Source: a virus (taxonomy: Duplodnaviria > Heunggongvirae > Uroviricota > Caudoviricetes). From it: 16,061 bases of DNA. The stretch is taken from IMG/VR virus record IMGVR_UViG_2660238318_000012; one strand, given 5' to 3'. Each line of letters starts with the position of its first letter. Within the stretch, counting starts at the first letter, position 1. The notes under the pieces were generated by a model. The model had not been told where the DNA came from and made no database searches. It was given only the letters and a program-made list of their open reading frames with translations. The position numbers and the translations under genes were made by a program. This document shows, in pieces, positions 1-8,840 of this stretch.

Positions 1-1461
1 ATGAAAAAATTACTGCGTCTTTTTTTCCCGCTCTCGCTGCGGGTACGTTTTCTGTTGGCAACGGCAGCGGTAGTACTGGTGCTTTCGCTTGCCTACGGAA
101 TGGTCGCGCTGATCGGTTATAGCGTCAGTTTCGATAAAACTACGTTTCGGCTGTTACGTGGCGAGAGCAATCTGTTCTATACCCTTGCGCAGTGGGAAAA
201 CAATAAGTTGCATGTCGAGTTACCCGAAAATATCGACAAGCAAAGCCCCACCATGACGCTAATTTATGATGAGAACGGGCAGCTTTTATGGGCGCAACGT
301 GACGTGCCCTGGCTGATGAAAATGATCCAGCCTGACTGGCTGAAATCGAATGGTTTTCATGAAATTGAAGCGGATGTTAACGATACCAGCCTCTTGCTGA
401 GTGGAGATCATTCGATACAGCAACAGTTGCAGGAAGTGCGGGAAGATGATGACGACGCGGAGATGACCCACTCGGTGGCGGTAAACGTCTACCCGGCAAC
501 ATCGCGGATGCCAAAATTAACCATTGTGGTGGTGGATACCATTCCGGTGGAGCTAAAAAGTTCCTATATGGTCTGGAGCTGGTTTATCTATGTGCTCTCA
601 GCCAATCTGCTGTTAGTGATCCCGCTGCTGTGGGTCGCCGCCTGGTGGAGTTTACGCCCCATCGAAGCCCTGGCAAAAGAAGTCCGCGAACTGGAAGAAC
701 ATAACCGCGAATTGCTCAATCCAGCCACAACGCGAGAACTGACCAGTCTGGTACGAAACCTGAACCGATTGTTAAAAAGTGAACGCGAACGTTACGACAA
801 ATACCGTACGACGCTCACCGACCTGACCCATAGTCTGAAAACGCCACTGGCGGTGCTGCAAAGTACGCTGCGTTCTCTGCGTAGTGAAAAGATGAGCGTC
901 AGTGATGCTGAGCCGGTAATGCTGGAGCAAATCAGCCGCATTTCACAGCAAATTGGCTACTACCTGCATCGTGCCAGTATGCGCGGCGGGACATTGCTCA
1001 GCCGCGAGCTGCATCCGGTCGCCCCACTGCTGGACAATCTCACCTCAGCGCTGAACAAAGTGTATCAACGCAAAGGGGTCAATATCTCTCTCGATATTTC
1101 GCCAGAGATCAGCTTTGTCGGTGAGCAGAACGATTTTGTCGAGGTGATGGGCAACGTGCTGGATAATGCCTGTAAATATTGCCTCGAGTTTGTCGAAATT
1201 TCTGCAAGGCAAACCGACGAGCATCTCTATATTGTGGTCGAGGATGATGGCCCCGGTATTCCATTAAGCAAGCGAGAGGTCATTTTCGACCGTGGTCAAC
1301 GGGTTGATACTTTACGCCCTGGGCAAGGTGTAGGGCTGGCGGTAGCCCGCGAAATCACCGAGCAATATGAGGGTAAAATCGTCGCCGGAGAGAGCATGCT
1401 GGGCGGTGCGCGGATGGAGGTGATTTTTGGTCGCCAGCATTCTGCGCCGAAAGATGAATAA
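1..1461 (+). CDS. phoQ: Sensor histidine kinase PhoQ of the PhoPQ two-component system, complete 486 aa
   Basis: Full-length ORF with N-terminal transmembrane segment, periplasmic acidic patch ([15 protein letters not shown]), HAMP region, H-box ([12 protein letters not shown]) and ATPase G-boxes ([16 protein letters not shown]). Sequence recognised as E. coli PhoQ from memory; no search run. Confidence 0.97.
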
Positions 1462-1579
1462 ATATGTCCTTTTACCACTACATCAAGTCATTGATTCGAT
1501 CAAACAATTTTCATTGAAAAAGTGCCAAAAATCGCAAATTGACTACACCATTAACTACACCGTTCGGTGCACTGTATGA

Positions 1580-1605
1580 AACAACGTGGAACAAATAGAC
1601 ACAAG
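1580..1605 (+). repeat. Phased 10-bp AACAA repeat array (site A) at island left end; shares 15-mer AACAACGTGGAACAA with site B
   Basis: AACAA at 1580, 1590 and CACAA at 1600, exactly 10 bp apart; the 15-mer at 1580-1594 is identical to 9056-9070. Confidence 0.45.
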
Positions 1606-1973
1606 AAATATACAGGCGGGTAATCTTTCCAGGGGGAAGCGCACCAATTCATGAGGGGCGTTAATGTCGATATGGGGATCCCCATAACGGGGCTACCGGA
1701 TTTTTTTTCCGGTTAACCTTTAATCAGGCTGGTGGGTTTTACATACCCTTGATCACCGTAATGATGATCCAGATGTGCACCTTTTCCACCAATGGCGGAA
1801 AAGCTCCAACCGTAACGATGATCGCTATGGTTGCCTCGATGGTCTGCGTGGTCATTATGACCGTTCAGCCAGTGACCTTAATCAGAATTTTTCGCTAAAA
1901 AATGACGTTGGCCACGTCATCCGGAAAGCACAAAATCACGTCGATTTTTAATGAACGGTTAAACCGTCTTTTT

Positions 1974-2008
1974 GTCACGGTGTGTCACTGGTTGTCACTC
2001 TCCGTCAC
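1974..2008 (+). repeat. Four GTCAC repeats at exact 10-bp phasing; candidate arm-type recombinase or excisionase binding array
   Basis: GTCAC at 1974, 1984, 1994, 2004; adjacent palindromes ACGGTT-A-AACCGT (1955-1967) and ATGACGT-N5-ACGTCAT (1902-1920). Confidence 0.4.
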
Positions 2009-2257
2009 GATTGAGGTGGTGGTCATTCTGCCCGACCGCGCATCTTTGCGCTATCGGGAATATCAAACAGTTACCTCGCCGACTTCCTCAAATTGAGGTT
2101 TCCGAAAATATCAGAGCGGGTTAGCGATTAAGCTGACGAGTAATTAAACTGCGAAAATTTCGTAGTTTCTGAATATATTCCGGCCTGCTGGTTAACAGTC
2201 CTCAGATGTGAGGGATGTAGCCAGCGCAATTTTGCGCTTTGCTTTAATCTCAGTGAG

Positions 2258-2539
2258 TTACCGCCGTAACCGCTCCGGCTTCTTCCAGTGGTACGTGATT
2301 TTCTCCTTCTCCCGATACAGTTCAACGCGGCGATTGTAGGCCAGCATTTCCAGAACGCGGATCCGTATGTCGCGCATATCCGCATCATTAAGCTGGATAC
2401 CATCACGGCGCATCACCTCAGCAACAACACGCGCATAATTTTCGGCTGTCACGCTGTCCGGCTGCGTGGTCTGTTCGTCAGCCTGCTGGCTGATTCCAGA
2501 GACGCGGCGGATTAATCGCAGTATTTCGGCTTCTGTCAT
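2258..2539 (-). CDS. Hypothetical protein, 93 aa, last gene of the packaging operon
   Basis: ORF with GAGG Shine-Dalgarno about 9 nt upstream of ATG, starting 13 nt after terL stop; charged, protein-like composition; no recognisable domain. Confidence 0.55.
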   Translation of the reverse strand: MTEAEILRLIRRVSGISQQADEQTTQPDSVTAENYARVVAEVMRRDGIQLNDADMRDIRIRVLEMLAYNRRVELYREKEKITYHWKKPERLRR

Positions 2540-2552
2540 GCTGCTGACCTCA

Positions 2553-4214
2553 TTACACCCCGCTAAATTCTTCCAGTTTCTGGCGGTGGCTGTCGCTTAT
2601 ATCAAAAGCAAAATCCTCATGCTCTGCCTGGAATGTACCAAACGCCATCAGCGCCGCTACGCTCGGGTCTATCTTGTTCGGTGATTTTTTCTTGTTCGGC
2701 TTGATATTGGCGTTCGCGTCACTCTGCATCACGACGTTACTCATCGACCAGGACAACACCGGATCGCCACGATGCACAATCACCCTGCGGTTAACAAAAA
2801 CTTCGAACGATTTCGCCGCCGGACTGAATCTGAGGTAGGTTTGCGGGAACGGCTCCACCTCAAAACCAGCCCCCTGTAATTGCGTCCTGAGATGCGTGGC
2901 GTTCCACGTATCAAAGCCCACCAGCCTGATATTAAATTTCTCCGCATCCTGCATGATGTCATCTCTGATCCGGTCGTAATCAATGCAGTCACCTGGCGTT
3001 GTGCGTATCCAGCCCGCTTTAGCCCACTGGCGATAGACAGCGCGGTTTTTATTGGCGGGGTTCTGTAGCTGGAACTCCGGCAGATAATGACGGGAAATCA
3101 GCATAATGGTTTTACCGACCGGAAAGGCATAGCATACGCTGGAAATATCGCTGGTTGATGATAAGTCCAGCCCCGCGTAACACTCCTGACCGTGTAAATC
3201 TTCCTCCGTGAACGTTCCGGCACACTCAGCCCATGCACCATTACCCATCCACGGGGTAGTCCCCTGACACCAGATATTAAATCGCTTTGTCATCATCTCC
3301 ACCCACTGCGACGGAATACCCCGCGCTTTCTGGATGGTTGAGGCCAGTTTTTCACGATCCACGGAAACATCAATATTAGGGTTCGCCTTTATCCACATCG
3401 CCGGATCATCAACCTCGTTTTCGTCGTCCAGTTCGTAAATCAGTACAAAAATTGAATCGTTAACCTCTTCGCCGTCCAGGATCTGGCAGCAATAATCATA
3501 GTGCTGTTTACAGGCTGAAACGACGTTACTGCCCGATGTGGTAATGGCAAATAACAGCCCTTCGGGACGTGCGCCCATCCCCAGCTCAAGCGCGGAATAA
3601 ACGCCGTTATCGGGGTGTAGGTGGTATTCGTCCACGATGGAAAGACTGGGGTTTGTCCCCTCGATGGTTGCCGCTTTTGCTGCCAGCGGCTTTAACAGGC
3701 TGTTGCTTTTCGGGTGTATCACCTTATGCGCCTGAATATTCACCCGCCTGCGTAACGGTCGGGATAAAAGGCACATCTGACGCGCATTATCAAACACGAT
3801 CCGCGCCTGGTCACGGCTCACCGCTGCGGTGTAGATATCCTGCTGACCGTTCTCCATAATCAGAAACCAGTTAGCCAGAATCGCGGCGGTCGTGGATTTC
3901 GCATTTTTGCGCGGCACTTCGATAAAGGCGCTCGTGTATTTGCGCCGTCCGGTGGCCTTAACCTTAAAGCCGAGGATGCACGCAAAGGCGAACTGCTGCC
4001 ACGGCTCCAGCTCAATGGGTCTGCCACGCATCGGTCCTTTTACGTGCGGGCACACCCTGGAAAAGGCAATAAACCGCTCCACAACCTCACGATCGAACGT
4101 GTAAAGGGGGCTTTTAAGGTCCGAAAAGTACCGTTTAACAGCCTGTTTTAACCGTTTACAGGCCGGAATTTTGCCCGTTTTTACGTCTTCTGCGTACTTA
4201 TTCCAGGCGGTCAA
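2553..4214 (-). CDS. terL: Terminase large subunit, 553 aa
   Basis: Walker A-like VPRKNAKST near the N-terminus, ATPase then nuclease domain layout typical of Terminase_1 family; 5' end overlaps terS by 17 nt. Confidence 0.95.
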   Translation of the reverse strand: MTAWNKYAEDVKTGKIPACKRLKQAVKRYFSDLKSPLYTFDREVVERFIAFSRVCPHVKGPMRGRPIELEPWQQFAFACILGFKVKATGRRKYTSAFIEVPRKNAKSTTAAILANWFLIMENGQQDIYTAAVSRDQARIVFDNARQMCLLSRPLRRRVNIQAHKVIHPKSNSLLKPLAAKAATIEGTNPSLSIVDEYHLHPDNGVYSALELGMGARPEGLLFAITTSGSNVVSACKQHYDYCCQILDGEEVNDSIFVLIYELDDENEVDDPAMWIKANPNIDVSVDREKLASTIQKARGIPSQWVEMMTKRFNIWCQGTTPWMGNGAWAECAGTFTEEDLHGQECYAGLDLSSTSDISSVCYAFPVGKTIMLISRHYLPEFQLQNPANKNRAVYRQWAKAGWIRTTPGDCIDYDRIRDDIMQDAEKFNIRLVGFDTWNATHLRTQLQGAGFEVEPFPQTYLRFSPAAKSFEVFVNRRVIVHRGDPVLSWSMSNVVMQSDANANIKPNKKKSPNKIDPSVAALMAFGTFQAEHEDFAFDISDSHRQKLEEFSGV

Positions 4215-4509
4215 GCTCGTCCTCTTCTTCTGTTTCCGGTGGATTTTTACGGCGGCTTATCGGGTCAAAACCGAGCAAGGAGGCCATTTTTATCATCACT
4301 CTTTCAGCGTCGGATTTTGCGCTTAATGCGGGGTTTCTGCTCTCGCCGCCCTGACTGTTAACAATGCTGAACCCGCGCGCCGCAAGGTCTGCAACGGCTT
4401 TCCGGTAAATGGAGTAGTTGACGCAATACAGTTCCAGATTGCTCCAGTCGGCGGGGGTCAGGTCTCCCCGTTCCGCAAGCTGCCGCGATTTTTCCCGCCA
4501 CTGCTTCAC
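4198..4509 (-). CDS. terS: Terminase small subunit, P27 family; annotated GTG start probably truncated by a frameshift (true start likely ATG near 4570)
   Basis: Core resembles P27-family TerS. The conserved N-terminal motif KPDPAYLDDIAVKQW lies in frame upstream of the GTG but is cut by TGA; an ATG with GAGG RBS sits in the -1 frame across a G6 tract. Confidence 0.8.
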   Translation of the reverse strand: MKQWREKSRQLAERGDLTPADWSNLELYCVNYSIYRKAVADLAARGFSIVNSQGGESRNPALSAKSDAERVMIKMASLLGFDPISRRKNPPETEEEDELDRLE

Positions 4510-4745
4510 GGCGATATCATCCAGGTAGGCGGGGTCGGGTTTGTCCTGAAAACGCCCCCCACCCCGTCATACAGCCTCATCAGCGATTGCGGAAACATTC
4601 CATAACCTCGCGGTCACGGTCGGTTAATCGCTTCGCTGTGATGCGTTCTGCGCGTCCTGACGCTTTATCTTTATGCCCTGTTTCCTGTGTCTTCCATGCG
4701 TCACGCTGCCTTATAAGTCCACGGATAAGGCGGTTTTGTTCCCGC

Positions 4746-5186
4746 TCATTCATCAGCGTCATACATCCAGTTATTGCGGTTAGCAGCCCGTTCTTCCTCT
4801 TCACGAAATCCACCTGCGGCACGCTTGCTTTTTGTTGCCGGATCAAGCCATTTCGTTTTCTGGTTATGACACGCCTGGCACAATGGTTGATGGTTCCATT
4901 CGGGCCAGAAGAGAACATCATCACCGCCATTAATCGGGATAATGTGATCCACCACCACGGCGGGCGTATATATCCCCTTCTCAAGGCATCGCACGCATAA
5001 CGGGTTTTTACTCAGATACATGGCGCGGTATTTGTCCCACTGTCTGGAATATCCACGCGCGCGGCGGTGTCCTCGTCTGGCATCCTCTGCACGCCATGCC
5101 GCCCGCCTGTGCTCCTCACACTTGCCGGATTTAACGCGCCTGTTACAGCCTGGTTCTGTGCATCGTCTTAATGGTTGCCACGGCAT
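4746..5186 (-). CDS. HNH endonuclease associated with cos-type terminase, 146 aa
   Basis: Cys-rich N-terminus (CTEPGCNRRVKSGKCEEH), HNH core (VDHIIPINGG ... NHQPLCQACHNQK); located immediately upstream of terS as in HK97-like packaging modules. Confidence 0.9.
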   Translation of the reverse strand: MPWQPLRRCTEPGCNRRVKSGKCEEHRRAAWRAEDARRGHRRARGYSRQWDKYRAMYLSKNPLCVRCLEKGIYTPAVVVDHIIPINGGDDVLFWPEWNHQPLCQACHNQKTKWLDPATKSKRAAGGFREEEERAANRNNWMYDADE

Positions 5187-5482
5187 CAGTACCCCCCCAC
5201 ATCACGGTAAGCCGTCCAGAGTGCGCCTATCGTCATGGGTACGCGTGTTTTTGCGTTATCCGCGACAATCTGGCGATTTTCATACAGGTGAGCGATAAAC
5301 ATCATGCAGCCAATCTTTATGGCTGGCGTGAACGCCAGCCCGTCATCAAAGCGCCTGCCTATGTGTATCTGGCACGCCTCAAGCGATGCGGCAATGTATC
5401 CGCTGATTAACTGGTCTTCATCGTCGCCATCGATGCGGCAATGGAGTTTCACTTCTTCCAGGGTGATAAGTTCTTCTGTCAT
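5186..5482 (-). CDS. Head-tail connector protein, gp6-like, 98 aa
   Basis: N-terminal LTLEEVKLHCRIDGDDEDQLISGYIAAS matches the gp6-like connector signature; start and stop overlap neighbouring genes. Confidence 0.75.
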   Translation of the reverse strand: MTEELITLEEVKLHCRIDGDDEDQLISGYIAASLEACQIHIGRRFDDGLAFTPAIKIGCMMFIAHLYENRQIVADNAKTRVPMTIGALWTAYRDVGGY

Positions 5483-5817
5483 TTTTCCGCGCCCTCACGA
5501 CAAAGAATTTCAAGGCGTGTCCTGGCGGCATCCGGCAGCGGCTGCCCGATGATATTCAGTACACGCCCCGCCAGCGGCCCCGTACTGACCTTTATCCGGC
5601 TGGTGGCGTTGATGTCCTTCCGGTACCGTATCCAGATCCTTACGGTACCAATCGCCAGCTCTGCGCCCGATGAAATGGCCTCCTTGCTGCTGACCATGTT
5701 CACGCTTGCCCAGAGTGTGTGACCGTCCTCCCACGTTTCGAGTATTTCGCCGGTTATATCCCTGGTCTGTTTCAGGGTCTGAATCGTTATCCTGTCACGC
5801 AGTCGCCCTATGTTCAT
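5479..5817 (-). CDS. Head closure / head-tail adaptor protein, 112 aa from the ATGA-overlap start; longest ORF starts at 5859
   Basis: MNIGRLRDRITIQ ... RIWIRYRKDI motif typical of phage head closure proteins; ATG at 5815-5817 overlaps portal stop. Confidence 0.75.
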   Translation of the reverse strand: MNIGRLRDRITIQTLKQTRDITGEILETWEDGHTLWASVNMVSSKEAISSGAELAIGTVRIWIRYRKDINATSRIKVSTGPLAGRVLNIIGQPLPDAARTRLEILCREGAEK

Positions 5818-7069
5818 TCCGGTTTTTCTCCCTCGCTGATTTTTACTTCCTGTTTCCATGCCTGGCTGAACTCATCACCACCATCACGCGGTGACAGCCC
5901 TTCACGTTCGCGGGCTTCGTTCGGACACATAACGTCGGATTTTATGCCGCGCTCATAGGTGGCAAAGCGTTCGCCAGGTGTGGCCCGTAACAGGTCCGCG
6001 CTGTCAAACTCCACCTGATACCGGATACCAGGTACAGGCGAGGCCACCAGCAAGGCGTTTTTTATCTGCTGCTCAAAGTTCGCCAGCCACGGGCGCATCG
6101 TCATGNNNNNNNNNNNNNNNNNNNNNNNNNNNNNNNNNNNNNNNNNNNNNNNNNNNNNNNNNNNNNNNNNNNNNNNNNNNNNNNNNNNNNNNTGTTGCTG
6201 TATTCCTGCAAAAAAATCGGCGAGACGTTGAACATTCGGGCGATGTCTTCAATGGTGAAGCGACGGGAGGCCAGCCATTCGGCATCCTGATTACTCATGC
6301 CCAGCTGCTGATAGCTCATCCCCCCTTCAAGGATGGGCGTTTTTCCGGCGTTTCTGGCCCCTTTGTAGCGTTCCAGTGCGGCTAATGCCTGTTTGCCCCT
6401 CACGCCGTCCAGCCATTCGCCTGACGTGATAACCCCTGCCGCCATCATGCCATCACGCATCACGCTCGCGCCGTGGCGTTGTTGGGCCAGCCCAAGCCCC
6501 AGCGATTCGCGGCAGATGGTTACAGGTGAGCGCCCCATAAAACCGTCATCCGTGGAGTAACGAAGGTGGAGAACCTCCCACGGTAAATAGTTGCGGATGT
6601 TTCCGGTGTAGGCGTCAGTGATGCAGTAGCGCCAGTTATGATCACCTGTCTGCTCCACGTTCACCGACTGCGGCGGGTAAGGATGTAAAGCCGCCGGAAA
6701 ACCATCACGCCCCCACTGAATAACCGCATAAGCATTACCACTTAACAGGCAGTAGCGGATCATCATTCGCTTAAACTGGTAGGGTGTCTGCCACGCGTTC
6801 GGGCGCTCGTTGAGGATGTGATCGACCGGATGAGAATCAAGCCATTCGCGGGCCTCCTTCCCCTTCTCATTGCGTACCAGGTACAGGTAACACGGCATGG
6901 TAGCCACCGCGTCAGAGATGACCGTGACGGCGTTCATGACGGCGGGGAGTGATTCCGCTGTCCCAGATGATACGTACTCACCCGCCCCCGTGTTCGATGT
7001 GCCGGCCAGCGCCATAAATTCATCAAGCGTCATGCTGCGCTGCTCTTTTTTTCGTCTGAAAGGCCACAT
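5814..7069 (-). CDS. Portal protein, HK97 family, interrupted by an assembly gap (N run 6106-6192)
   Basis: N-terminal 322-aa ORF (6101-7069) and C-terminal 96-aa ORF (5814-6104) both read as portal sequence; frame across the gap is undefined. Confidence 0.85.
6106..6192. other. Assembly gap, 87 N
   Basis: Run of n characters directly visible in the sequence. Confidence 0.99.
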
Positions 7070-7070
7070 A

Positions 7071-7643
7071 TCACACCCCCGCTAAATCCGCCCACCAGCG
7101 GCGATTATCCGCACGCGGCATTTTTTCGGGGTGCTGCTCATACAGGGAACGGCGGGCCAGCTCCACGCCGGAATCGGGGTAAGCCGGTACCGATGTAACG
7201 GTAATTTCGTACAGTTCCGCCACCAGCACGGTGCGCACGCATGGATCTGTTGTGGTATCCCATACATCCTTACGGGAGCGAAAGCCAAAGCTCATCCCCG
7301 AGATGTCCCCACGCTTAACCAGTTCGATAACGTCGCGCCCTGTACTGGTATCCGGTGGGGTCAGTTCAAAGCGTAACCCTGTTTCGTCCTCTTCCAGTTT
7401 CAGCGTGCCGGAACGGGTGCGCCCCAGTAACATGCTGTGGTCATGCTCATACAGGCCGCGAACGTCATTACCCGCCGCAAGCCATTCAGTAAACGCCCCC
7501 CGCTGGAATTTTTCGTAAAACTCACCCCATAACAGTTCTGAAAGCTTATCCCAGCGAACAACGTAGCCCGTCAGCGTACCGGCTCCGCTGGTGGTGATTT
7601 CCGATGACCGGATTTCCATACTCTTCATAATTTTTTCACCCAT
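7071..7643 (-). CDS. Prohead maturation protease, HK97 family, 190 aa
   Basis: GLYEHD motif and overall HK97-protease-like layout; positioned between capsid and portal genes. Confidence 0.9.
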   Translation of the reverse strand: MGEKIMKSMEIRSSEITTSGAGTLTGYVVRWDKLSELLWGEFYEKFQRGAFTEWLAAGNDVRGLYEHDHSMLLGRTRSGTLKLEEDETGLRFELTPPDTSTGRDVIELVKRGDISGMSFGFRSRKDVWDTTTDPCVRTVLVAELYEITVTSVPAYPDSGVELARRSLYEQHPEKMPRADNRRWWADLAGV

Positions 7644-7652
7644 AAAACACTA

Positions 7653-7672
7653 AAGGGGCTTTTTAGCCCCTT
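7653..7672 (-). terminator. Intergenic hairpin between capsid and protease genes; candidate partial terminator or attenuator
   Basis: Perfect 8-bp stem AAGGGGCT/AGCCCCTT with TTTT loop, followed on the minus strand by UAGUGUUUU; 10 nt after capsid stop. Confidence 0.4.
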
Positions 7673-7682
7673 CTGTATGCTG

Positions 7683-8012
7683 TTAATCGTCGTCTTCCGG
7701 CAGTGCCAGAATCTTGATCGCGTTCGAATCCACCACGCCACCGCCTAAATATTTTTGCGTGAAAATTTTGATGAATCCTGGTTCTGTCAGGTTGTCCGGT
7801 CTGGTGCGAACACCTGTTTCGTGATCAACAATGTAGTAACCGCGTTTGAAGTCACCCAGGGCAATAACGTTATCAGGCATAAACTCCAGATATTCGACCG
7901 GAAGGCCCAGCAACGTATCAGGATCACCCGCCTGTAAACGGTCGCGCCAGATATAATCACCGTTCGCGTTCTTCACCTTCTGAAGTTTTGCCGCCGTCGT
8001 GGAGTTAACCAC
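7683..8012 (-). CDS. Major capsid protein, C-terminal 109-aa fragment; in frame with and directly after a TGA that ends the upstream fragment
   Basis: Contains HK97-fold C-terminal consensus (ALGDFKRGYYIVDHETGVRTRP ... GGGVVDSNAIKILAL); the ORF track places it in the same frame as 8013-8888, starting immediately after its stop. Confidence 0.8.
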   Translation of the reverse strand: MVNSTTAAKLQKVKNANGDYIWRDRLQAGDPDTLLGLPVEYLEFMPDNVIALGDFKRGYYIVDHETGVRTRPDNLTEPGFIKIFTQKYLGGGVVDSNAIKILALPEDDD

Positions 8013-8840
8013 TCAGACCGCGTTTTTGCGGTATTTTTTACGTAATGCAAATTTCAGGTCGATCAGCGGGTCCGCAGATGTCCACGCCAGAGATTCGGAA
8101 GGTTTAATTACCTGCAACGTACCAAAATCACGCTCTTTGTCGTTCTTCTCTGCACGGGGTACGGATAAAAAACCTTTTGCTTTTTTGTCACCGTCGCCCA
8201 CAACCAGATCGCTTTCTTCGGTTTCCGTGAAGGTGTCGCCAATCTCACCCGTCAGCCATGAAAGGATGTCCACATCGGAAAAATCCACGATTTCCTGTGT
8301 GGTGCGCGGGTACGCATAGACCGGATACAGCTTAATGCTCACCTCGTTAATCTGCGGGGTGCTGGTCTGTTCGCGTGCCTTACCCTCTTCACCGTGGTTA
8401 ACGGTCGCACCGCCAGCGGAAACAAGCTGCTTAAACTCGTTGCTGCTGATTTTCTTCACGGTACAGATGCGACGCATGGTGGATTCATCCGCCAGCATTC
8501 GCATGATTTCGGTGTTCAGTTCAGGGATAACGGTATAACCACCATCAGCGGGAACGCCTGTACTTAATGCGCGGGTTTCACCGGTCAGAATGTAGTTACG
8601 TAGTTCTGCGGGGTCAGTGGTCTGGCTGCTTTTACCTGGCTTGCTGCGCTCTTCGTCTGCAATGGCTTCAAGGCGGGAAATGTCTTTATCGAGGGATTCA
8701 GCTTTAGCGCGTAATTCGTCAAATTTTGCGCCCTCAGCATCGTTAAGACTGCGGTTTTCTTTTTCAGCGTTCTCCAGCATGTCGCGCATCTGATTTTTAA
8801 TGGCGGTTTTCTGCTGGCGTAATTCGATTATTCTCTGCAT
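8013..8840 (-). CDS. Major capsid protein, HK97 fold, N-terminal fragment with coiled-coil delta/scaffold domain; ends at in-frame TGA. Longest ORF begins at GTG 8888
   Basis: ATG at 8838-8840 has AGGA RBS; coiled-coil N-terminus (MQRIIELRQQKTAIKNQMRDMLENAEKENRSL ...) then capsid body. Fragments sum to about 384 aa, the size of an HK97-type capsid protein. Confidence 0.8.
   Translation of the reverse strand: MQRIIELRQQKTAIKNQMRDMLENAEKENRSLNDAEGAKFDELRAKAESLDKDISRLEAIADEERSKPGKSSQTTDPAELRNYILTGETRALSTGVPADGGYTVIPELNTEIMRMLADESTMRRICTVKKISSNEFKQLVSAGGATVNHGEEGKAREQTSTPQINEVSIKLYPVYAYPRTTQEIVDFSDVDILSWLTGEIGDTFTETEESDLVVGDGDKKAKGFLSVPRAEKNDKERDFGTLQVIKPSESLAWTSADPLIDLKFALRKKYRKNAV

Follow-up and report, generated by a model that had tools for sequence, protein, structure and literature searches.

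The attachment site and gene content of the island

The window analysed here is a 16,061-nt stretch of Caudoviricetes DNA (IMG/VR record IMGVR_UViG_2660238318_000012) that opens with the regulator gene phoQ (1-1461, plus strand). From 1462 to its last position, 16061, the window consists of a single element, an island of ~14.6-14.8 kb that extends to just beyond 16061. The subject of this analysis is the end of the island next to phoQ, positions 1462-2257. An earlier note, made from the letters alone, had described this interval as an island junction dense with repeats and palindromes and had likened it to an attachment (att) arm with integrase and excisionase sites; every repeat, hairpin and array that it listed was found in place.

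All island genes are encoded on the minus strand, both in the list of open reading frames (ORFs) and in the relatives, and Pfam matches within the island identified an integrase, AlpA, a D5-type primase, a capsid protein, a protease, an HNH endonuclease and a small terminase (TerS). The tyrosine integrase (14832-16061, minus strand) has an N-terminal arm-binding domain (PF13356, Arm-DNA-bind_3) together with matches to PF22022 and PF00589. Also assigned by Pfam on the minus strand were an AlpA-family regulator (14269-14457; PF05930, E = 5e-18), the D5-type primase (10547-12295) and a large terminase (2553-4214), and the other Pfam products of the island are a DUF4222 protein, an HK97-fold capsid protein, an S78 prohead protease and a P27-type TerS. 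The last gene of the operon, which borders the interval, is a 93-aa ORF (phrog_1561; 2258-2539, minus strand) with no Pfam match.

The integrase is 97.8% identical to that of EcCICFT073, the prototype Gram-negative phage-inducible chromosomal island (PICI) from E. coli CFT073, and 91% identical to the integrases of islands inserted at tqsA. The closest complete relative (locus L001; 97%) is an element bounded by phoQ and roxA whose genes include those for the portal, head closure and connector, with none for tail or lysis; the annotations of L001, L004 and L005 contain neither lysis nor tail genes, and the ORFs of the window correspond to the same genes. An NCBI assembly (L019) is 100% identical to the window over 1-6105 and 99.96% identical (one mismatch) over 6193-8583, and an island of Shigella flexneri SFBU1023 (L008) matches at 98.5-100% identity. 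A run of 87 N (masked or unresolved) occupies 6106-6192, within the portal gene region. Fragments of the 1462-2257 stretch were found in 1145 of 5426 complete E. coli genomes, and a megablast search of GenBank phages returned no match.

PICIs and capsid-forming PICIs (cf-PICIs) have been described as families, PICIs being elements of 10-15 kb at a dedicated att site that is shunned by prophages (PMC6092414, 10.1101/2022.09.08.507074). The island has this length and occupies the EcCICFT073 site; it combines an integrase, alpA, a primase with an iteron origin and unidirectional transcription, and it encodes no lysis or tail functions. AlpA is a candidate accessory or excision protein, and its role in EcCICFT073 induction has been reported (PMC6092414). 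At least 12 iterons (GGTAGAYAG / CTRTCTACC), in both orientations, surround an A+T-rich stretch at 10300-10540, and this array forms a replication origin directly downstream of the D5-type primase gene.

The insertion point lies at the phoQ stop codon

In E. coli K-12, phoQ and roxA are separated by just 75 bp. Because this empty site is so short, the 0.8 kb that follows phoQ in the window is island DNA. The alignment with an island-free phoQ region that the earlier note had recommended thus gives both the insertion point, directly after the phoQ stop as the note had placed it, and the core; the outcome that would have counted against it, the 0.8 kb standing unchanged in an island-free strain, was not observed.

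Comparison of the left and right junctions with the K-12 site identified the att core as a 10-bp direct repeat, AAATATGTCC (1460-1469). The left junction of the window reads GAATAAATATGTCC/TTTTACC and the right junction, just before roxA in L001, L012 and EcCICFT073, reads GATAAAATATGTCC/ATACTTCACG, while the K-12 empty site is GAATAAATATGCCCATACTTCACG and holds AAATATGCCC once. An identical core is therefore found at both junctions and as a single copy in the empty site, with the right junction read from L001 and L012. Two of the core's bases are also the final two of the phoQ stop codon (TAA, 1459-1461), such that insertion regenerates the stop. Sibling islands at tqsA have a 9-bp core, TGCTGTTAT, at the equivalent position. 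Excision is predicted to yield the attP junction ...GATAAAATATGTCC TTTTACCAC..., i.e. ...CACTAATTGATAAAATATGTCC/TTTTACCACTACATCAAG..., and would leave the empty site GAATAAATATG(T/C)CCATACTTCACG.

The window ends at the integrase start codon (16061), with the second arm and the second core just outside. The absence of roxA, correctly observed in the earlier note, arises because the window stops at this codon; in relatives roxA lies ~250 bp beyond the integrase start. The note had also held that the core could not be set without the right end. Relatives allowed the 10 bp to be assigned, and the right junction of this particular island does lie outside the window. At the same site in the O157:H7 strain TX 265-1 (L003, 26808-29350), a classical PICI between phoQ and roxA has had its integrase end broken by an IS3-family element.

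An arm module duplicated on both sides of the core

The ~150 bp that start with the core contain the elements of an attachment arm. A predicted consensus site for integration host factor (IHF), AATCAATGACTTG (1484-1496, minus strand), is one of only three matches to WATCAANNNNTTR in 16 kb, and, by our reading, an IHF consensus occupies the equivalent position in L001 (AATCAATGGCTTG) and in the tqsA-type L004 (AATCAACGTGTTA). Two 12-bp direct repeats, ATTGACTACACC and ATTAACTACACC (1538-1561, plus strand), are candidate integrase arm-type sites. They contain the 8-mer ACTACACC at 1542-1549 and 1554-1561, its sole two copies in the 16-kb window (0.23 expected). A tandem 8-mer alone was reached in 148 of the 1000 dinucleotide shuffles that served for chance tests on the stretch, which is not significant; its weight comes from conservation instead. 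The distal half consists of three (G)AACAA / CACAA repeats in 10-bp phase (1578-1604, plus strand), with AACAA at 1580 and 1590 and CACAA at 1600.

The two ACTACACC 12-mers and the AACAA-type repeats make up one module (1538-1604), and a second copy of this module, in the same orientation, is found on the integrase-proximal arm, where 24 bp separate it from the start of int and ~150 bp from the core. The ACTACACC pair stands 24 bp from the int start in L001, L012, L004, L005 and L006, and the AACAA-type repeats of that arm read AACGTGAAACAAGCTGGAACAAG. In L007 and L017 the repeats read GAACAATATCGAACAACCACGAACAA. Three AACAA-type repeats in 10-bp phase occur on both arms, and AlpA is encoded by the island; the repeats are candidate sites for an accessory protein, either a directionality factor or AlpA.

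Conservation was scored in bins across 21 loci, presence was counted over 44 IMG/VR loci and gene neighbours were checked in 10 assemblies. Positions 1521-1620 aligned in 20 of the 21 loci at 94-97% identity and are the most widely shared part of the interval. The module is conserved at four att sites, namely phoQ, tqsA, clpS and a fourth.

A circular sibling of the tqsA type was found in IMG/VR (L073, IMGVR_UViG_3300045988_152974), as an 11,098-bp contig with a 118-bp terminal overlap. Its elements follow in the order int, module, ~150 bp, TGCTGTTAT, ~72 bp, module, palindrome, T8 hairpin and Chi. Both copies of the module are joined through the core and lie 233 bp apart, equal to the distance predicted from integrated junctions. 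This metagenomic contig with an intact attP shows that relatives excise, or circulate in an excised or packaged form.

Heterobivalent tyrosine integrases of the lambda, P4, P2 and HP1 type share a general attP logic, and the junction resembles their attP sites in having a short core at both junctions, arm repeats unlike the core on both arms, asymmetric arms (~150 and 72 bp), an IHF consensus between the core and the arm sites and a separate arm-binding domain in the integrase. It differs in the unique pair of ACTACACC 12-mers, which is combined with the AACAA repeats into a single 65-80-bp module placed in direct orientation on both arms. In the properties that can be tested on the sequence, the junction matches an arm of a heterobivalent tyrosine-integrase attP, and it works like one. 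Because the module is the outermost element on the int side, the arm is expected, by symmetry, to end near 1605.

A damaged head and packaging module

A cf-PICI has a complete head and packaging module of its own, with its own cohesive-end site (cos); here, the genes of this module are all recognisable but damaged. The major capsid gene (window 7683-8888) contains an in-frame stop at 8013-8015 replacing Trp. Apart from the stop it is 99% identical to the intact L001 protein, and the same split is called in L023. Relative to L001, L004, L005 and L007, the window has a 97-bp deletion between two CCCCGCC repeats (window 4521-4540; junction 4528-4534) in which an HK97-like cos segment and the start codon of terS are lost. 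A GTG at 4509 is now the earliest usable start of terS, giving 103 aa instead of 118 aa. The same deletion is present in S. flexneri SFBU1023 (L008), and L019 and L023, identical or nearly identical to the window over this stretch, have a terS call shortened to 108 aa.

Relatives carry, between HNH and terS, a series resembling HK97 cos that consists of a G-run, a CCCC motif, CGCCTCCTCAAA and CACGGGAATTTTTT (HK97 reference: GGGGGGGGG...GACCGCCGCCAAA/GTTTGAA...AACCCGATTTTTTT), the difference being that this homolog lies outside the 1462-2257 stretch and is deleted in the window. As located in L001 (23310-23420) and L004 (~19040-19150, minus strand), it sits between the small ORF after HNH and terS, where a G-run, CCCGACCCCGCC, CGCCTCCTCAAA and, ~30 nt ahead of the ATG of terS, CACGGGAATTTTTT parallel GGGGGGGGG...GACCGCCGCCAAA/GTTTGAATTTAACGCTAACCCGATTTTTTT of HK97. 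No mapping of this cos was found in the cf-PICI preprints searched.

Given the loss of cos and the terS start together with the capsid stop, the island probably cannot package itself. The integrase and the att arm are intact, and this copy may still excise. Judged from its genes, the island is a decayed capsid-forming PICI by descent, at the EcCICFT073 site, and belongs to a kind already known.

A model for the interval

Taken together, these results make it likely, with good confidence, that the interval is the integrase-distal end of a phage satellite of P4-integrase type, a decayed cf-PICI inserted between phoQ and roxA, with att machinery at ~1460-1605 followed by a non-coding operon tail. 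According to this model, site-specific recombination would insert the satellite at the 10-bp core and IHF, binding its consensus site, would bend the arm. The N-terminal domain of the integrase would hold the ACTACACC repeats while its catalytic domain acts at the core, and an accessory protein would use the AACAA repeats. Positions 1606-2257 would then be a non-coding tail downstream of the last operon gene, and not att, composed of putative modules: the palindrome, T-loop hairpin and Chi; a terminator-bearing, hairpin-rich stretch; an optional set of four GTCAC units; and 3′ remnants of the 93-aa ORF. Termination elements in this tail would separate the convergent phoQ and island operon.

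Several observations weigh against the model. The core was assigned from relatives whose integrases are 95-98% identical, because the second arm and core lie beyond the window. The excised circle, which the earlier note had proposed to detect by polymerase chain reaction, was recovered in silico for the tqsA-type sibling L073, and not for the phoQ type: a junction search of IMG/VR found no phoQ-type circle, and a search of JGI metagenomes gave 13 matches, all to unrelated AT-rich DNA. An automated terminator scan did not list the minus-strand terminator at 1897-1921 that is predicted below. Moreover, the block at 1606-1745, assigned to the tail, is nearly as conserved as the arm module and, being present in the circular L073 too, may have a part in recombination.

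A probable non-coding tail of the island operon

In 42 of the 44 IMG/VR loci the arm module and a homolog of the 93-aa ORF are 393-774 bp apart, and the same arrangement is found in 10 of 10 assemblies. Lambda-cos and capsid-forming PICIs alike invariably have this ORF as their final gene ahead of the tail and attP, and excision to a circle places it 5′ to int, on the same strand. The best 120 of its 965 homologs are all at least 88% identical, and a GTDB genome locus search with the ORF returned only one near-identical Shigella locus and one spurious match. Its role might relate to att or to the tail. A hotspot for cargo genes after the packaging operon has been proposed (10.1101/2025.02.11.637232). 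As a candidate for the region between the 93-aa ORF and att, a cargo or defence hotspot was rejected, with no cargo gene in the 10 assemblies or in 42 IMG/VR loci; the gap between ORF and module held only tiny ORF calls in the assemblies, and no IMG/VR gap was wide enough for a cargo gene. The small ORFs of the tail belong to no Pfam or PHROG family and were rejected as genes because they are broken by indels between alleles.

An intrinsic terminator of the island operon is predicted at 1897-1921 (minus strand), where the hairpin AUGACGU-GGCCA-ACGUCAU (1903-1921) is followed by U6, 336 nt beyond the stop of the 93-aa ORF. In our own scan of both strands this is the sole hairpin with a U-tract in 1440-2600. 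On the plus strand, the terminator scan reported a weak terminator-like site, ACGGTTAAACCGT followed by CTTTTTG (1955-1972), and, within 2222-2266, a hairpin, AGCGCAATTTTGCGCT, followed by TTGCTTTAAT; L007, L015 and L018 retain the 1955-1972 hairpin with a U-G wobble that is workable on the plus strand only. The segment 1770-1976 folds with z = -3.7 on the minus strand (0 of 200 shuffles) and z = -1.9 on the plus strand, and the strong minus-strand fold agrees with an island operon that ends in a hairpin-rich 3′ untranslated region.

Towards the 93-aa ORF, the tail contains a ~45-bp unit in two to three copies. The distal copy (2036-2080, by alignment) consists of a short hairpin, ~15 nt and AGTTACC, and the ORF-proximal copy of the hairpin plus AGTTACCGCC unit (2222-2266) overlaps the stop and last codons of the 93-aa ORF. 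Across copies the hairpins (GCGCA..TGCGC, CCCA..TGGG and GCTCA..TGAGC) differ in sequence and keep their pairing, and the units look like leftover earlier 3′ ends of this ORF. A module common to most relatives (2086-2166) has a hairpin, CCTCAAATTGAGG, at 2086-2098 and a palindrome, ACTGCGAAAATTTCGTAGT, at 2148-2166, and the 2081-2100 bin aligned in 15 of 21 loci at 97% identity. Hairpins with 6-bp stems number eight in the whole stretch, where 1.7 would be expected, and this count was reached in 4 of 1000 shuffles. Two allelic forms were found in 1745-1870, and roughly half of the loci have 1866-2010, a cassette with the predicted minus-strand terminator, the weak plus-strand terminator-like site and the GTCAC array. 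These patterns suggest that repeated exchange of modules has made the tail a mosaic.

The folding results raise the alternative that the tail encodes a functional RNA, either a structured 3′ untranslated region on the minus strand or a small RNA on the plus strand that would run from a promoter at ~1738-1765 to 1955-1972. Beyond the minus-strand z-score of 1770-1976, several hairpins keep pairing despite sequence change, and a promoter-like site is indeed present on the plus strand at 1738-1765 with terminator-like sites beyond it. However, Rfam 15 gave no match up to E = 1 (1300-2700, both strands), the segment 1600-1750 folds no better than shuffles (z = -0.7 and -1.5), and the counts of promoters and terminators do not exceed those in shuffled sequence. 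In addition, conservation is lowest in 1741-1860, where indels separate two allelic forms, and the palindromes fit sites acting at the DNA level equally well. We therefore regard a functional RNA as unlikely.

A conserved palindrome, T-loop hairpin and Chi motif

Just beyond the arm module lies a palindrome, CGATATGGGGA/TCCCCATAACG (1668-1689; 11-nt arms, 91% complementary). The earlier note had recorded it as perfect over 14 bp (1672-1685), which is right for those positions and too short: the perfect core, TATGGGGATCCCCATA, spans 16 bp (1671-1686) and is centred on GATC. A perfect palindrome of this length arose in 11 of 1000 shuffles. Most relatives, of whichever packaging type, have its centre 113-153 bp past the point where the arm module starts, and in at least 13 loci a 7-bp deletion leaves a palindrome core of 12 bp only. 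A search for a second copy of the half-site, as in an operator, gave only a chance-level match, inside int.

The adjacent inverted repeat, ACCGGA-T8-CCGGT (1695-1713), is predicted as a hairpin on both strands, and in relatives it varies by single-base insertions on either arm (ACCTGG..CCGGT or ACCGG..CCAGGT). It is not a canonical terminator, because no U-tract follows the hairpin on either strand. A motif scan located a Chi octamer, GCTGGTGG (1728-1735, plus strand), within the invariant motif AATCAGGCTGGTGGG; a plus-oriented Chi is present in the tail in 12 of 12 loci checked and in 36 of 44 IMG/VR loci. Conservation over the 21 loci peaks at the arm module, the palindrome (1661-1680) and the Chi motif (1721-1740). 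The last of these bins has 97% identity over 19 loci and the next bin 77%, such that high conservation ends ~10 bp to the right of Chi.

The island contains 13 Chi octamers in 14.6 kb compared with 0.44 expected from shuffles, a ~30-fold excess, and phoQ has none. Nine of the 13 are on the coding (minus) strand, and from the att end to the cos position on the terS side only the Chi at 1728 is plus-oriented. RecBCD entering from the terS-side cos end would meet no other Chi in the correct orientation. No description of Chi enrichment in PICIs was found in the literature searched.

One could suppose that the palindrome, T-loop hairpin and invariant Chi just beyond attP form a conserved functional unit shared by every E. 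coli PICI of this integrase family, which could protect injected or packaged linear DNA or focus RecA-mediated exchange, with the four GTCAC units as a site for a helper or host protein. This proposal is speculative and we give it a low probability; if true, RecA-focused exchange would explain why modules are shuffled between the packaging part of the islands and their int/att part.

The GTCAC array and the extent of the arm

Four copies of GTCAC at an exact spacing of 10 bp (starts 1974, 1984, 1994 and 2004; 1974-2008, plus strand) form the only such cluster in the window, and a run of four phased units was not obtained in any of 1000 shuffles. The array is present in the window, L001, L006 and L007 and absent from L003, L004, L005, L012 and EcCICFT073; among the IMG/VR loci, 24 of 44 have it. 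More than 500 bp separate it from the core. It is directly adjacent to the stop codon of the 93-aa ORF in L006, and it travels with the ORF side of the tail and not with the att side. Judged by this distribution, the array is an optional module.

These data bear on the extent of the arm. The earlier note had spread integrase and excisionase sites over the entire 0.8 kb, with the palindrome, T8 hairpin and GTCAC array as further sites of a functional att arm. Such an arrangement would account for the near-invariance of 1606-1745 beside the arm module in both phoQ- and tqsA-site islands of the shared integrase family, and for the presence of this block in the excised circle L073. The GTCAC units also resemble the core of lambda Int arm-type sites, which is CAGTCACTAT. 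Yet the int side has nothing past the arm module, and the distant GTCAC array is missing from about half of the relatives and from EcCICFT073, an island that excises and integrates (PMC6092414). L006 and L007 have the arm module (the L006 integrase being 87% identical) but a different 450-bp segment beyond it, and at least 13 loci have lost the palindrome's right half. An arm of this length is thus improbable. The att-arm pattern stands for ~150 of the 796 bp, where the module recurs on both arms, at other att sites and in L073 and the integrase has an arm-binding domain; for the palindrome, the T8 hairpin and GTCAC it is not supported.

In HK97, the TerS site CTAACCCGATTTTTT lies at +15 to +29 from the cut (10.1101/2023.07.17.549218), and the packaging genes of the island are HK97-like (Pfam; 10.1101/2025.02.11.637232). 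The palindrome and T8 hairpin could on this basis be read as an HK97-like cos, cleaved in GGGGATCCCC and bound by the small terminase at CTACCGGATTTTTTTT, 15 bp from the palindrome centre, a spacing that matches the HK97 geometry. We consider this very improbable. A better HK97 cos homolog, by position and by sequence, lies between HNH and terS in L001, L004, L005 and L007; EcCICFT073 keeps the palindrome block although its lambda-type cosN copies flank rppA; L007 encodes an identical TerS yet is without the block; and a 7-bp deletion shifts the spacing in L004 and L005. The palindrome and T8 hairpin neither co-occur with a cognate terminase nor lie by terS, and the HK97 look-alike at 1671-1708 is probably coincidental. 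The cosN copies flanking rppA are presumably the cos1 and cos2 tested previously (PMC6092414, PMC6739421). A lambda-type cos in the tail was also rejected as a candidate: the exact EcCICFT073 cosN flanks rppA, and none is present in the window.

In P4, iteron clusters lie kilobases apart. By this analogy the four identical GTCAC units in exact helical phase might serve replication, as iterons of a second origin or as a P4-like cis replication region, but this is scarcely credible when the origin by the primase uses the other iteron, GGTAGAYAG, and shares none with the array, when the island has no second GTCAC cluster, and when the array is unlinked to the type of replication protein (a D5-type primase here, RepA-type helicases in L001 and L006, and islands of either type from which it is absent).

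Discussion

In the preferred model, an att arm of ~150 bp at the integrase-distal end of a decayed cf-PICI followed by a non-coding operon tail, the island has its closest known counterparts in EcCICFT073 and in the cf-PICIs. With EcCICFT073 it has in common the site between phoQ and roxA and the core, the arm module on both arms, the terminal 93-aa ORF and the tail block of palindrome, T-hairpin and Chi at 93% identity. EcCICFT073 has, in place of the full HK97-like head and packaging operon, a decoration gene, a capsid-like gene and rppA flanked by two copies of lambda-type cosN, and its 554-bp tail contains no GTCAC array. The cf-PICIs (EcCIEDL933 family; L001, L004, L005 and L007) share the operon of capsid, protease, portal, head closure, connector, HNH, TerS (P27 type), TerL and 93-aa ORF, as well as unidirectional transcription, a length of ~15 kb and a non-coding tail before att (10.1101/2022.09.08.507074). 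Compared with them, this copy is without the 97 bp that hold the HK97-like cos and terS start and has the capsid stop; the insertion sites of cf-PICI siblings include tqsA, clpS and one close to thiamine-kinase genes.

What stays curious here, namely the conserved block of palindrome and Chi, the optional array of GTCAC units and the excess of Chi, concerns small points of satellite biology and no new kind of system. The analysis fixes the insertion point of a phage satellite exactly, at the phoQ stop codon, and it provides a testable attP layout for this E. coli PICI integrase family, comprising the core, an IHF site and a duplicated arm module. This layout may be of use for the annotation of islands, for the design of excision assays and for engineering PICIs as delivery vehicles.

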